Part shown: piece after piece, positions 7,382 to 15,950 of the stretch
How the letters are laid out: each line of letters opens with the position of its first letter
Numbering within the stretch: position 1 is the first letter of the stretch
Origin: a virus
Taxonomy: Duplodnaviria; Heunggongvirae; Uroviricota; Caudoviricetes
Length of the DNA: 15,950 nt
Direction: 5' to 3' (one strand)
Virus record (IMG/VR): IMGVR_UViG_2657245448_000017
Made by a program: the position numbers and the translations under genes
The notes under the pieces: generated by a model
What the model saw: the letters and a program-made list of their open reading frames with translations, nothing else
Told to the model about the DNA's origin: nothing
Databases searched by the model: none

Positions 7382-7624
7382 TTAAGCTGCTGAATCTGCA
7401 GACTTTTGGAAAACATCAGGACGCAGTCTTTCTTTTGGGATGCCAGTAACGCTCTCAATGTACTGAGATTGCTTTATTGGCGACCTTTTTTCTCTGTTGA
7501 GCCAGTTCCATACCTGTTGTTGTTTAACTTCCTTCCCGGAACTTGCAGTTAGTTTCCGGGCTAACTCAGACTGGCCACCAGCAGTTTCAATTGCCTCTGA
7601 AAGGGCTAACTGCTCAGGTGTCAT
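7382..7624 (-). CDS. cro: Cro-like HTH regulator (YdaS/Cro family)
   Basis: 80 aa from ATG 7624 with AGGAG seven nt upstream. Motif ETAGGQSELARKL...QQQVWNWL resembles Cro/YdaS-type HTH proteins. Divergent from the CI-like gene across an operator-rich spacer. Confidence 0.7.
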   Translation of the reverse strand: MTPEQLALSEAIETAGGQSELARKLTASSGKEVKQQQVWNWLNREKRSPIKQSQYIESVTGIPKERLRPDVFQKSADSAA

Positions 7625-7761
7625 AGTTTTTCTCCTGTGGTTTGAGGTAAAAGTTGTTGGCACCATTGATCATACAACCTAAACAACTTTTACCACAACT
7701 TTTAGGTGTTGGAAAGCTAAAACATAAAGTTGTAATCTCTCCTAATACAGGGGGTAAAGTT
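7625..7761. promoter_or_regulatory. OR-like divergent promoter/operator region between cro and cI
   Basis: Five perfect copies of AAAGTTGT or its reverse complement (7650-7657, 7683-7690, 7696-7703, 7726-7733, 7756-7763). Candidate PR -10 TATGAT on the minus strand at 7668-7673. Confidence 0.6.
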
Positions 7762-8448
7762 GTGAATACACTTGCGGAACGACTAAAAATAGCTAGAGAG
7801 AAGAAAGGCATGAGCCAGGCTCAGTTAGCCGAGCTAATAGGCCTGTCTCAACAATCTGTGGCGAAAATTGAAAATGGAGATACGCTTCAACCTAGAAAGA
7901 TCAAAGATATTGCGAAAGCTTTAGATGTATCCCAAAAATGGCTACAGCTCGGAATTGAGGAGAATGGCTCTATTTCTGATTTTGTAGTTGAGGAACTTGA
8001 AGAAGCAAAACTTGATCCTGAAGTATTTGCCAACATACCCGTTCTCGATGTTGAGTTCTCTGCTGGCAATGGATGTGAAGCCGAAATTGTGGAATCAGTT
8101 GTTGATTCGTTCCCTCTTCGTCGTTTCGATCTTAGAAAAGCTGGAGTCAGTCCTGCTAACGCAAGAATCGTAAAGATTTGGGGCAACAGCCTTTTGCCAG
8201 TATTGAATAATGGGGATCATGTCGCGATTGACATGTCACAGTCGAAACCTATCAGAGATGGTGATTTATACGCTGTTAGAGATGGAGTTTTACTTCGAGT
8301 TAAAGTTCTTATCAATCAACCAGATGGTGGTTTGATACTGCGGAGTTTCAACAAAGAAGAGTACCCGGATGAAGTACTCAACTTTGATGAAAGAAGAGCC
8401 AGAATACACGTTATTGGTCGCGTGTTCTGGTCTTCACGTTCATGGTAG
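7762..8448 (+). CDS. cI: CI-like prophage repressor (N-terminal HTH, C-terminal LexA/S24-type autocleavage domain)
   Basis: HTH QAQLAELIGLSQQSVAKIENG. C-terminal domain with Ala-Gly site (FSAGNG), Ser in GNSLLP and Lys in LLRVKVL, alignable to lambda CI. Start chosen at GTG 7762 after GGGGG (7750-7754), giving 228 aa; the upstream TTG at 7654 lies in the operator region. Confidence 0.85.
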   Translation: MNTLAERLKIAREKKGMSQAQLAELIGLSQQSVAKIENGDTLQPRKIKDIAKALDVSQKWLQLGIEENGSISDFVVEELEEAKLDPEVFANIPVLDVEFSAGNGCEAEIVESVVDSFPLRRFDLRKAGVSPANARIVKIWGNSLLPVLNNGDHVAIDMSQSKPIRDGDLYAVRDGVLLRVKVLINQPDGGLILRSFNKEEYPDEVLNFDERRARIHVIGRVFWSSRSW

Positions 8449-9321
8449 AGCGTGAAAAAGCATTTCTTCTGAAATGATTTTTAACTTAGCCCCTTCATCA
8501 TCTCTATATGAGACTGCTTTTTCTATTTTCCTTCCGTGACTGGAGAACTTCCAGTCACGCGAGGAAAGAGTACCAATTACGAGAAAATCAATTCTCTTTG
8601 TGATTCCGCTGGAAATCAGTCCATTATTCTTTTTAATTAGGTCTTCAACATGTGCTCTCTTTCCTGCCAAAAAAACACCCGTTAAGCAAAATGTTTTATT
8701 TTCAACAGAAACTTCAGCAGTATTATCTAATGGTAATTTAGTAGAAAGCCCATCTACGACGCCGCTTGCAAGGTCACAACCAGTAAAATCTACCAGCGCC
8801 TTGTGTAGATTTTCACTTTCTTCAGTGGTGATGATCCCATCGCTCAGAATCTCTTTTACTAAAGCGTATAGTTCCTTTCCTGGATAATTACTTTTTAGCG
8901 CCCCGTTCTGTGTTAACCACCAGTCCAGGTATCTCACTTCTTCTTCACTTAAGGTTCGATCTGATATTAAACCCTTGCAAAGACCATTCAACAGATGCAG
9001 ATCTGACTCACTGGAGAATAAATCCACATCGGGTATATCGAGTATTTGTCTTTGTATATCATTAAGATGCAGTTTTAATTCACCACGCTCATCATCAGAA
9101 ACAACACCATCGGCCAGTATTTTAGAAACCCTAACACTTAGACTCTTGATAACACCATTTCTAATGGTTTGGTTGGCTTCAAGTAGCCAAGTATCAAGAT
9201 ATAGCACCTCTTCATCCCGCACATGTCCATCGGCAAGAATCCCATCAATAATGCTGATTAAATTTGCAAAAAGCTTATTTCTATTTTGTGTGTAGTTAAA
9301 AACGTAGAGCTTGTCTTCCAT
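8440..9321 (-). CDS. Tandem TerB-like repeat protein with C-terminal BRCT domain (uncharacterised)
   Basis: 293 aa from ATG 9321 with AAGGAGG four nt upstream. Four copies of an (I/L)L(A/S)DGxxx(D/E)EExxxL motif resembling the paired motifs of TerB domains. C-terminal 80 aa (KTFCLTGVF...IDFLVIGT...) aligns by eye to the LigA BRCT domain. Convergent with cI, overlapping it by 9 bp. Confidence 0.7.
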   Translation of the reverse strand: MEDKLYVFNYTQNRNKLFANLISIIDGILADGHVRDEEVLYLDTWLLEANQTIRNGVIKSLSVRVSKILADGVVSDDERGELKLHLNDIQRQILDIPDVDLFSSESDLHLLNGLCKGLISDRTLSEEEVRYLDWWLTQNGALKSNYPGKELYALVKEILSDGIITTEESENLHKALVDFTGCDLASGVVDGLSTKLPLDNTAEVSVENKTFCLTGVFLAGKRAHVEDLIKKNNGLISSGITKRIDFLVIGTLSSRDWKFSSHGRKIEKAVSYRDDEGAKLKIISEEMLFHALP

Positions 9322-9557
9322 ACAGCCTCCTTTTTTGAACATCCTTACATTCAGACGCCCCACAATCAAACCACATAAAGTTGTTGACATAACCATTATT
9401 CACAACTAAATTACACCTTAAAGTTGTTATTACGATTTACAACATTACAACTAGCCATAAGCAACAGCGAACAGGCAGGACGCCCACGAAGTAGCCGCCG
9501 GTGGCGTATGAATAACCGGATGATTCGCTCAATAAAGTTAGGTAGGGGAATTTCACG
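9322..9557. promoter_or_regulatory. OL/PL-like operator-promoter region
   Basis: Plus-strand promoter with -35 TTGACA (9384-9389), 17-bp spacer and -10 TAAATT (9407-9412). Operator 8-mer AAAGTTGT at 9377-9384 and 9420-9427, plus partial copies at 9402-9410 and 9447-9452. Confidence 0.55.
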
Positions 9558-9770
9558 ATGAATGCAGCACAACGCCGAAGGGCTTATCACAAACACCCGA
9601 AAGTTGGGGACACTGTAATTTTACGAGGCATTCCTCGCCTAGTACTGGGTCCGTGTACGTTCAACAGCCTTACTGGCGAAGAGCGTAGCAAACCTTCGGT
9701 AAGCCGTGTCAGGGTTCAAATGACTGGCGGCTCAACAGCTGCACCACTCGTACGTAATTTAAAGTTTTAG
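9558..9770 (+). CDS. Putative N-like antiterminator with N-terminal arginine-rich motif
   Basis: 70 aa. N-terminus MNAAQRRRAYHK parallels the lambda N ARM (MDAQTRRRERRAEK). First gene downstream of the PL-like promoter. Confidence 0.45.
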   Translation: MNAAQRRRAYHKHPKVGDTVILRGIPRLVLGPCTFNSLTGEERSKPSVSRVRVQMTGGSTAAPLVRNLKF

Positions 9771-10070
9771 CGATAAACAGGTGTCTTCGGGAGGGGTTAC
9801 GGGCTGGAGTGACTACCAGCATCGACAGCTCTATCCGACGAAACGGAACCGTCTAACCCGCGGTTGTCGGTGAAAAGTACCGTAGGGATGCCAGCTAGTC
9901 ACTGGCCCCCGCCCGAAGATACCTACCACCGCGCCTGATGTGGTTAAAAGCAGGCCAAAGCAATAACAAGTACTTCCCTGTTCTGGCGGCCCGGTGTTTT
10001 CCCACTTGTCCGGTCACCGCCAGCCTTTTTCAGGGCACAACGACGAGAGCATTGACGAGCAAGGCATAAG

Positions 10071-10150
10071 TGCTGGTTCGATTCCAGACAGTCCCATTCT
10101 GTTGGGAGGGTTGGGCAGGGAAAAGGTTCGTTCGATTCGAACACCGGCAG
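10071..10150 (+). other. tRNA-like element (T-arm plus acceptor stem), non-canonical, inside an ORF-poor island
   Basis: Perfect T-arm GTTCG-TTCGATT-CGAAC (10126-10142). A 7-bp acceptor pairing TGCTGGT (10071-10077) with ACCGGCA (10143-10149) includes one G-U pair. D-stem-like pairing is present, but the anticodon arm is non-canonical (6-nt loop) and there is no encoded CCA. Confidence 0.25.
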
Positions 10151-10556
10151 TGCTCTCTTCGTTGTGGTGAATGCGCAGGCTGATGCGCTAAACCGTGAGG
10201 GAGTGTCCCGAAAGGGTGCGTCACTGGTAATCAACCCATGCCGGAATATCGTAGTACCGGCCACCACAACCAAATCACGCTTAGGACCGTGATAACCGTA
10301 GTTCCAGTATTGCTGTGTGTAGTCTTGGCGGTACCAGGGTCTTCAACCTTATGCAAGGGGGACGAAGATAATGTTCTACCTCGGTACCGCCCTTTTTACG
10401 CAACAGAAAAGGGCATCACCGGGCGACGGGCTCATAACCCAATCCACCCTGGCAAAAGACAGCGGTCTCTGCAAGCCGCCGACCAATGCAGGTGTCCTTC
10501 TCTGTTGTGTATGGAGAAAACACGGCGGTGGAAGCCGCCTTAACGAGGGTAAAACC

Positions 10557-10928
10557 ATGAGTAATGACCGCATGACCGTAGTGCCAGATTTTCTTGGCGA
10601 ACTGGATGCCGGCGTGTTCATGAACAAAATCGCGGCAGCACTTAATACCACCGCGCTTGGCGTTCTGAACAATGGCAACAAAGGCAAAGTAGTCCTCACC
10701 TTTGATTTTGAGCGTATGGGTAATTCCGTTGAAGAGAAGCGCGTGAAGATCAAGCACAAGCTGAACTACAGCACCCCGACACCGCGTGGTAAAGCCTCCG
10801 AAGAGGACACAACCGAAACCCCTATGTGGGTTAACAAAGGCGGGAAGCTCACCATCCTGCAGGAAGACCAGGGCAACTTGTTTACCCTCGGCGGGGATCC
10901 GGACGGAAAGTTACGCGCGGCGAAATAA
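10557..10928 (+). CDS. Hypothetical early-left protein (possibly YfdP-like)
   Basis: 123 aa from ATG 10557 with GAGGG seven nt upstream; the longer track ORF (10371) begins inside the ORF-poor island. Family assignment is tentative. Confidence 0.55.
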   Translation: MSNDRMTVVPDFLGELDAGVFMNKIAAALNTTALGVLNNGNKGKVVLTFDFERMGNSVEEKRVKIKHKLNYSTPTPRGKASEEDTTETPMWVNKGGKLTILQEDQGNLFTLGGDPDGKLRAAK

Positions 10929-14593: not shown

Positions 14594-14827
14594 ATGTCCA
14601 GACTGATTTTACTCTCCGAATGGGCGAGATCAGAGTTCGGTGACCCGATTCCGAGCAAGTCCACTCTCAACAAATACGCCAAAAACGGGATGATCTTTCC
14701 TCTGCCTTGCCGTGTTGGGAAAAGCTGGCGCGTTGAAGCTAATGCCCGATTTACTGGACTCACAACAGAACCAGTAATTAAAAATCAAGATCACCCACTA
14801 CTCAGAAGGATTTTAGAAGATGGCTAG
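14594..14827 (+). CDS. xis: Excisionase (lambda Xis-like)
   Basis: 77 aa. LILLSEWARSEFGDPIPSKSTLNKYAKNGMIFPLPCRVGKSW parallels lambda Xis (LTLQEWNARQ...TVRRWVRECRIFPPPVKDGR). Overlaps the int start by 8 nt, as in lambda. Confidence 0.75.
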   Translation: MSRLILLSEWARSEFGDPIPSKSTLNKYAKNGMIFPLPCRVGKSWRVEANARFTGLTTEPVIKNQDHPLLRRILEDG

Positions 14828-15950
14828 ACCTCGAAAACACAACGTGACCATTCCCGGATTGTCATGTTTCCTGGATTCGAGGACCAACAAGGTGTACTGG
14901 AGGTATAAGCACCCTGTAACTGGTAAATTTCATGGATTAGGAACAGATGAGCAAGTTGCTAAAGAAATAGCTGTGGAAGCAAATAGCCGGCTCGCAGAAA
15001 GACAAATGCGGCACACTTTTAAAATCAGAGAAGAACTTAATAAACGGTGTGGGCTTTCTACAACGGTAAGCGAATGGATTGTTCGGTACCGAAAGTTGCA
15101 GGACCAGCGTTACGAAACTGGAGAGATAAAACTCAATACGCTCAAGCAGAAAAACGCCCCACTTAACGTTTTCGAAAGTCATCTTGGCATGCGGTCCATC
15201 GACAGCATAACAGTTAAGGATATAGTTGGGATCCTCGATGACTACAAAAATAAAGGCCAACTACGGATGGCACAAATTGTACGCAAAGTGCTGTCGGATG
15301 TTTTTAAAGAAGCACAGCAGGTAGGAGAAGTACCGGCAGGATTTAATCCAGCTGAAGCTACAAAAAAACCGCAGGTCCGTGTCTCCAGACAACGCCTGAC
15401 GTTCGAAGAATGGCTAATGATCTATCAGGCAGCCAAAAAAGATAATTACTTTCTACAGAAAGGAATGCTGCTGGCCATCATCACAGGACAGCGGTTGGCC
15501 GATATTTGTAATATGAGGTTTTCAGATGTCAGAGATGGTCACCTCTTCGTTGAACAAAGTAAAACAGGTGCCAAAATCGCAATACCTTTAAAGTTACGTT
15601 GTAACAAGTTAAACATTTCTCTTGAAGATGTAATCTCTCAATGCCGGGACAGGATACTTAGCCCGTATTTACTACATCATCACCACGACAAAGGGAAAGG
15701 CAAAAGAGGCGGAATGGTAAAACCGGCATCTCTAACTGGTGCGTTCAGAAAAGCACGTGACTCAGTTGACTACGACTGGTCAAGCAAAGGTGCTCCCCCT
15801 TCTTTCCATGAGCAACGTTCTTTGGCTGAAAGAATATTCAGGGAGCAAGGTATCGACACACAAATTTTGTTGGGCCATAGCAGTAAAGTAATGACTGATC
15901 ACTACAACGACACGCGTGGCAAAGAATGGAAAAAACTGGTCATTTTATGA
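14820..15950 (+). CDS. int: Tyrosine integrase, lambda Int family
   Basis: 376 aa with blocks alignable by eye to lambda Int: ITGQRLADICNMRFSDV...LFVEQSKTGAKIAIP and FHEQRSLAERIF...LLGHSSKVMTDHYNDTRGKEW. Stop codon is the last three bases of the window. Confidence 0.9.
   Translation: MARPRKHNVTIPGLSCFLDSRTNKVYWRYKHPVTGKFHGLGTDEQVAKEIAVEANSRLAERQMRHTFKIREELNKRCGLSTTVSEWIVRYRKLQDQRYETGEIKLNTLKQKNAPLNVFESHLGMRSIDSITVKDIVGILDDYKNKGQLRMAQIVRKVLSDVFKEAQQVGEVPAGFNPAEATKKPQVRVSRQRLTFEEWLMIYQAAKKDNYFLQKGMLLAIITGQRLADICNMRFSDVRDGHLFVEQSKTGAKIAIPLKLRCNKLNISLEDVISQCRDRILSPYLLHHHHDKGKGKRGGMVKPASLTGAFRKARDSVDYDWSSKGAPPSFHEQRSLAERIFREQGIDTQILLGHSSKVMTDHYNDTRGKEWKKLVIL

Follow-up and report, generated by a model that had tools for sequence, protein, structure and literature searches.

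In phage lambda the DNA between the repressor gene cI and the operator-promoter region OL/PL carries rexAB, which is co-transcribed with cI from the maintenance promoter. Other exclusion genes of immunity regions are sieB, stk of phage 933W and bstA of phage BTP1. Accessory genes within immunity regions are well known. We have analyzed a gene, here called X, that lies between cI and OL/PL in a lambdoid prophage (virus record IMGVR_UViG_2657245448_000017; the whole stretch of 15,950 nucleotides is termed the window). X resembles rexAB, sieB, stk and bstA in its slot, its low GC content and its being fixed in one immunity type, but it has no sequence or domain relation to any of them, and a PADLOC scan found no RexA or RexB homology for it. 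Its product is most probably a non-enzymatic accessory of a prophage immunity module that comprises cro, cI, X, OR and OL, and is made in the lysogen. The new aspects are the architecture of the protein, its lack of an effector and a promoter at OL that may be PRM-like.

The late and replication-side genes of the window and cro lie on the minus strand, and the early-left genes, on the plus strand, begin at about 9558 and extend as far as the integrase (14820-15950). The cro-like gene (7382-7624, minus strand) is of the YdaS family, and the cI-type repressor (7762-8448, plus strand, 228 aa) has HTH_3 and Peptidase_S24 domains. X (8440-9321, minus strand, 293 aa) is convergent with cI, and the 3' ends of the two genes share 9 nt (8440-8448). 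An earlier note on this DNA had likened X to rexAB. The likeness holds for position, but not for transcription. Since X is convergent with cI it lies outside the cI transcript, and in contrast to rexAB it is a single antiparallel gene with its own candidate promoter. A consensus scan alone places a terminator-like hairpin and T-run 3' of X, within the 3' part of cI (8359-8379, minus strand).

X is a real gene, widely conserved and non-enzymatic. The ATG at 9321 is conserved in relatives, and this start codon and the Shine-Dalgarno sequence are kept across 58 distinct upstream sequences. The latter is AGGAGG (9326-9331, minus strand), 4 nt ahead of the ATG, and had correctly been called near-consensus. 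The complete minus-strand open reading frame (ORF) holding X spans 8440-9396. A 318-aa reading from an ATG at 9396 was dropped because the 25-codon extension is neither in-frame nor length-conserved among relatives. An E. coli homologue of the same length has an NCBI entry as 'BRCT domain-containing protein', and the nearest database proteins are from Citrobacter koseri (98-100% identity). X belongs to PHROG 3989 (E = 1.5e-114), where no function is assigned. An exhaustive search returned 2675 cluster representatives at E<=1e-3, about 1500 of them at E<=1e-10, and the family has two main architectures, one of ~295 aa and one of ~210 aa. The GC content of X is 0.387, compared with 0.489 for the whole window and 0.50-0.55 for the early-left genes, confirming that it is AT-rich relative to the latter.

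The longer of the two architectures, to which X conforms, has two modules and a BRCT domain, and the shorter has one module and a BRCT domain. In X, module 1 occupies residues 8-95 (9037-9300, minus strand) and module 2 residues 100-182 (8776-9024, minus strand). Both are acidic and helical. They are 33% identical with E = 4e-10, and the N-terminal region is therefore internally duplicated. Four copies of a short motif lie at residues 29, 69, 119 and 159. When 67 relatives (27-86% identity) are aligned, every motif shows a near-invariant D that is followed seven residues later by an E, giving the pairs D31/E38 and D71/E78 in module 1 and D121/E128 and D161/E168 in module 2, while W45 in module 1 is invariant. 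The N-terminal region is strongly acidic throughout the family (mean charge -15), and the BRCT domain is basic (+4.5). The two are joined by a conserved glycine-rich linker (residues 183-206; 8704-8775, minus strand), where the confidence of the structural model is lower.

The BRCT domain (residues 207-293; 8443-8703, minus strand) is of the RFC1/LigA type. X matches Pfam PF00533 over residues 207-266 with 25.8 bits, against a gathering cut-off of 21.3, and 62 of the 67 relatives match the same profile. The C-terminal domain also has the alpha/beta fold of BRCT domains. The earlier note had read X as a repeat region with four motif copies followed by a C-terminal BRCT domain, and that architecture stands. 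R222, G250, W257, G263 and K265 are invariant, and T214 and G215 are found in 65/67 relatives. T214/G215, R222 and K265 align with the TG...R...K positions of RFC1, which form the phosphate pocket in RFC1 and BRCA1. The best sequence and fold matches of the domain are the DNA-binding BRCT domains of RFC1 p140, bacterial LigA and the ligase subunit B of T5-like phages. In these proteins BRCT is joined to clamp-loader or ligase catalytic domains, whereas X has no catalytic domain. The full architecture was unmatched among solved structures or viral predicted structures; a structure search of the viral proteins in BFVD gave BRCT-level matches to ligases only.

The modules had been described as TerB-like. 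PF05099 (TerB) was not matched by the whole of X at E<=1 or by the single modules at E<=10. Twelve of the 67 relatives do match it, all below the gathering score (the highest being 20.2 bits, compared with 24.4), and EF-hand profiles match the same motif in one relative. Alignment of the X family profile with a TerB sequence by hhalign gave a probability of 0.8%, although the template was a single sequence, which limits sensitivity; that sequence itself matches PF05099 at 3e-23. TerB_N (PF13208) and TerB_C (PF15615), for which a profile check had been suggested, are absent from the matches of X and from the 25 families listed for the 67 relatives. TerB homology of X is therefore not established. 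TerB domains recur in the defense systems Shango, Bunzi and Dionysus, and X shares with the TerB proteins of these systems a helix-loop-helix motif that is repeated and bears the signature D(G)x5-6E. Yet the partner genes of these systems are absent, and none of the tests established membership of the TerB family. The N-terminal region is best described as a duplicated pair of acidic modules, each of four helices, that carry a D(G)x5-6E motif of the type found in TerB and EF-hand loops.

Two annotations can be discarded. NAD-dependent DNA ligase LigA, as the family is named in some sources, was rejected because only the BRCT domain matches the LigA models (25 bits, with cut-offs of 369-1051), and no LigA adenylation, OB, Zn-finger or HhH domain was matched in X. 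An annotation as DNA polymerase III epsilon was rejected because again the BRCT region alone matches. The PADLOC scan assigned X to no named defense system, in keeping with what had been said of it, and gave a weak partial match to the candidate PDC-S48 only.

The operators of the immunity region are marked by the 8-mer AAAGTTGT, which occurs seven times in the window compared with 0.71 expected; none of 200 shuffles reached seven. All copies are confined to 7650-7763 and 9377-9427. Five lie in the OR region between cro and cI (7650-7763). The GTG start codon of cI (7762-7764) overlaps the operator copy at 7756-7763, and this suggests autoregulation of the maintenance transcript or a very short leader on it. 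The remaining two copies (9377-9384 and 9420-9427, plus strand) lie upstream of X, where their presence had been pointed out. PL (9384-9412, plus strand; TTGACA, 17 bp, TAAATT) is divergent from X. One 8-mer overlaps its -35 element and the other lies at about its transcription start, and we therefore assign both to PL as its operators.

A candidate promoter for X itself, PX, lies at 9341-9369 on the minus strand. Its -35 element is TTGATT (9369-9364) and its -10 element is AAGGAT (9346-9341); the spacer between them is 17 bp long and ends in TG (9349-9348). Transcription is predicted to start near 9334. A generic promoter scan of the minus strand returned nothing for X, and PX falls below its threshold. 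The pattern TTGAnn-17-(TGn)AAGGAT nevertheless recurs in 55 of the 58 distinct upstream sequences, that of the window included, and the sequence of the spacer is variable. Hexamers that are conserved while the spacer varies in sequence but not in length are a classical mark of sigma-70 promoters.

The arrangement of PL and PX resembles that of PR and PRM in lambda. In lambda OR the starts of PR and PRM are 82 bp apart, and cI bound at OR2 activates PRM as well as repressing PR. For PL and PX the distance between predicted starts is ~85 bp (9334-9419), with the operator between the two -35 elements and just upstream of that of PX. The nearest 8-mer is at -43 to -50 from the predicted PX start. 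This PRM-like geometry would be activating or neutral rather than occluding, and argues against simple repression of X. The earlier note had X probably under repressor control by virtue of the upstream 8-mers; these belong instead to PL. The geometry of PL and PX is compatible with expression of X in the lysogen.

We have surveyed the neighborhoods of X homologues. ORF calling was crude and each scan covered the 80 best loci, and the fractions are accordingly approximate. A cI homologue is convergent with X in all 80 IMG/VR loci found from X. The 3' ends of X and cI overlap by 9-18 nt in 78 of them, and the remaining two have a truncated X ORF. Loci L066 and L076 have the X frame cut to 242 aa with cI intact, and look like natural loss-of-function variants. 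A search from the cI side gave 46 loci in which the cI homologue is full-length (58-100% identity), and X was present in every one of them. We therefore rejected the idea of X as swappable cargo, since there was no such cI homologue without X. cro is present in 80/80 loci, and the identities of X and cI are correlated (r = 0.87). Only 4/80 loci share the first PL gene of the window. We conclude that cro, cI, X and the operators form one immunity module, with a mosaic boundary just past PL. X had been seen as a cargo gene in an exclusion slot, but in this lineage it is strictly inherited together with cro, cI and the operators. Among isolated phages, those nearest in cI are enteric (<=43% identity, Stx1 phages), and no X homologue was found in the enteric phages of that collection.

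Such strict co-inheritance raises the question of whether X is an accessory of the lysis-lysogeny switch. The BRCT domain might sense DNA damage (nicks, gaps or 5'-phosphate junctions) and modulate the inactivation or expression of the RecA-cleavable S24 repressor, and the convergent 3' overlap could provide antisense coupling with cI. We regard this as possible, if doubtful. It comes a close second in our ranking, since a component of the switch would be expected to be strictly co-inherited with a RecA-cleavable repressor, to co-vary with it and to keep the antisense overlap (9-18 nt), as X does. It is also in its favor that X homologues adjoin S24-type repressors repeatedly, and in two gene arrangements, in lineages that include enteric, Vibrio and Pseudomonas ones. 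A 2026 preprint describes cI/BRCT modules at the regulatory position of Roseobacter prophages, where they are presumed to be DNA-damage-responsive, but it reports no experiments with these genes. Against a role in the switch, about 60 of the 80 species-level homologues lack a nearby S24 repressor, and one is found in a satellite that has no cI. In addition X has no DNA-sequence-specific or protease domain, and lambda-type switches run without such a factor.

A more distant homologue is found in Vibrio phage K139. K139 Orf2 (kp3 of phage Kappa) is 32% identical to X over 96% of the length and has two modules and a BRCT domain. It is a true homologue that, like X, adjoins cI; in an annotated lysogenic operon its place is between cI and glo, an exclusion gene. 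Unlike X it is co-directional with cI, in the cI-orf2-glo-int operon of a P2-like phage. Sources list it as a BRCT protein or, in error, as an NAD-dependent ligase, and orf2 is not discussed in the K139-family papers. Same-strand placement directly 3' of an S24-family or cI-like repressor is also found for a 45%-identical metagenomic homologue, for that of Pseudomonas phage Marin and for a half-size form. Among 80 species-level genome loci the S24-type repressor is the immediate neighbor in 14, and lies within ~0.6 kb in three more. Seven of the 14 are convergent (Citrobacter, Serratia, Providencia, Proteus and Rosenbergiella), and in seven the repressor is upstream and co-directional. The survey of homologues that had been suggested thus places them beside prophage repressors in several phage lineages. 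Apart from the cellular contexts described next, the remaining loci are heterogeneous.

In three unrelated bacteria (L113, L144 and L162) a half-size homologue with one module and a BRCT domain lies right after ligA or slightly overlaps it. Full-length homologues are found in one conserved chromosomal context in eight metagenome-assembled genomes (MAGs) of marine gammaproteobacterial or SAR86 type (L107, L108, L110, L111, L114, L119, L122 and L156). A Band 7/SPFH-type gene of 282 aa is downstream in seven of these loci (not L108), a TonB-dependent-receptor-type gene of ~730 aa is upstream in four (L107, L108, L110 and L119), and no phage genes were found near the homologue in any of the eight.

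X could consequently be viewed as a helper in DNA metabolism, captured from a cellular family and acting with the replisome or with NAD-dependent ligase as an adaptor that binds nicks or ends; it might, for instance, help to seal or protect nicks and cos ends. The LigA/RFC1/phage LigB type of the BRCT domain agrees with this, as do the half-size homologues directly 3' of ligA in 3/80 genomes, the conserved chromosomal copies in marine Gammaproteobacteria and the fusions to DnaQ-like exonucleases described below. We nevertheless consider it unlikely. X is found in lysogenic operons beside cI rather than among replication and recombination genes, and in one element its homologue is linked to restriction and Wadjet genes. 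That element is satellite-like (D5_N primase, DUF5906 and Terminase_4) and comes from a Chlorobium MAG (L089/L139). The homologue is full-length and 40% identical to X, and is directly followed by an EcoO109I-type restriction enzyme and by Wadjet JetD and JetC-like genes.

The module and BRCT domain also occur as a unit fused to larger proteins. In P0187 and P0269 the unit is fused to a DnaQ-type (DEDDh) exonuclease; both proteins match PDC-S48 from position 8 (~1e-21) and also hit DEDDh. We therefore understand PDC-S48 as an exonuclease, a helical module and a BRCT domain. Elsewhere the unit ends a 2042-aa protein that has a superfamily 1 helicase, an MTES_1575 restriction endonuclease and DUF3320, and that matches PDC-S37, Mokosh MkoA/MkoC and Hhe. 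These exonuclease and helicase fusions point to the unit being a portable DNA-targeting or sensing appendage of defense-type nucleases and helicases. X shares the C-terminal module-BRCT unit with PDC-S48, and has a second module in place of the exonuclease domain. Its match (E = 5.5e-5) covers profile positions 239-377 of 411, i.e. the C-terminal two-fifths, and X has no match to the N-terminal DEDDh domain. A truncated relative of this kind might serve as an effector-less decoy, blocking such a host system for the benefit of the prophage or its progeny, and the partial alignment speaks in favor of this. We think this very improbable, because the similarity is weak, the duplicated module of X is not seen in the fused forms, and lysogen-type placement is unusual for anti-defense genes.

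Tentatively, we prefer the view that X is expressed in the lysogen, where it senses DNA ends or nicks and serves to exclude incoming phage DNA. We rank exclusion first because of the K139 operon containing glo, the restriction and Wadjet neighborhood, the fusions to defense-type enzymes, the low GC content and the autonomous candidate promoter. Transcription of X would run from PX, a conserved promoter of its own that stands back-to-back with PL. When repressor occupies the 8-mer that shuts off PL, just upstream of the PX -35 element, it could activate PX or be neutral toward it, in the manner of lambda cI at OR2 for PRM. The BRCT domain may recognize 5'-phosphorylated DNA ends, nicks or recessed junctions, and the acidic modules may bind a cation or a partner protein, and thereby gate or transmit that recognition. 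In the lysogen X would then act on the ends or replication intermediates of foreign phage DNA, giving exclusion of the Rex, Sie or BstA kind without an enzymatic domain of its own. The output could be a block to end joining or replication, or the recruitment of host factors.

A number of observations weigh against exclusion. X has no effector domain, PDC-S48 is itself only a candidate, and PX is predicted from sequence with a weak -10 element (3/6 plus TG). X was never exchanged for other cargo (80/80, 46/46, r = 0.87), which fits a regulatory partner as well as a fixed passenger of the Rex kind. Most species-level homologues do not adjoin a repressor; in 3/80 loci the gene immediately upstream is ligA, and SAR86-type MAGs carry homologues in a chromosomal TonB-receptor/Band 7 context. 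Searches of full-text literature turned up no functional characterization of the family, and no phenotype, transcript or binding data. Because many of the homologues are chromosomal and not phage-linked, we regard a defense role as no more than plausible.

The family is large and lies at the regulatory heart of temperate phages of Enterobacteriaceae, Vibrio and Pseudomonas. It has been visible since the K139 sequence, and its function was never assigned. If X does act in exclusion, it would add a non-enzymatic, DNA-end-recognizing mechanism to prophage-encoded immunity, and provide a functional handle on PDC-S48 and the helicase-fused relatives. If it tunes induction, it would represent a new input to cI-type switches. 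A more ambitious and rather improbable proposal is that X typifies a new class of effector-less DNA-end or nick sensors in temperate-phage immunity modules, in which acidic modules that respond to a cation or a partner control an RFC1-type BRCT domain and the gene has a repressor-activated PRM-like promoter at OL. The bound repressor that silences PL would in that case turn on X, coupling end detection to exclusion or induction.

Some further features were observed on the PL side of the locus. A GC-rich segment of ~65-70 nt lies 3' of PL (9462-9530, plus strand). It contains GCGAACAGGCAGGACGCCCACGAAGTAGCCGCCGGTGGCGTATGAATAACCGGATGATTCGC, is kept in many related loci with differing downstream DNA, and is followed by a boxA-like sequence, CGCTCAATAA. 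Together these may constitute an antitermination site of the nut or put type. The first PL ORF (9558-9770, plus strand, 70 aa) has an arginine-rich N-terminus, MNAAQRRRAYHKH, that recalls the arginine-rich motifs of N-type antiterminators; it gave no Pfam or PHROG match. For structured RNA in the PL leader or in 9380-10620 there was no Rfam match, and the folding z-score of 0.57 is unremarkable. Beyond the first ORF, 9771-10560 is GC-rich (0.548) and has no convincing ORF, and Rfam gave nothing for it even at E<=1. Of 5426 E. coli genomes, ~1700 have prophage DNA that is 80-99% identical to pieces of 9440-10620. The annotation of this DNA is in some cases 'ClpX C4-type zinc finger protein' or YfdP family protein.

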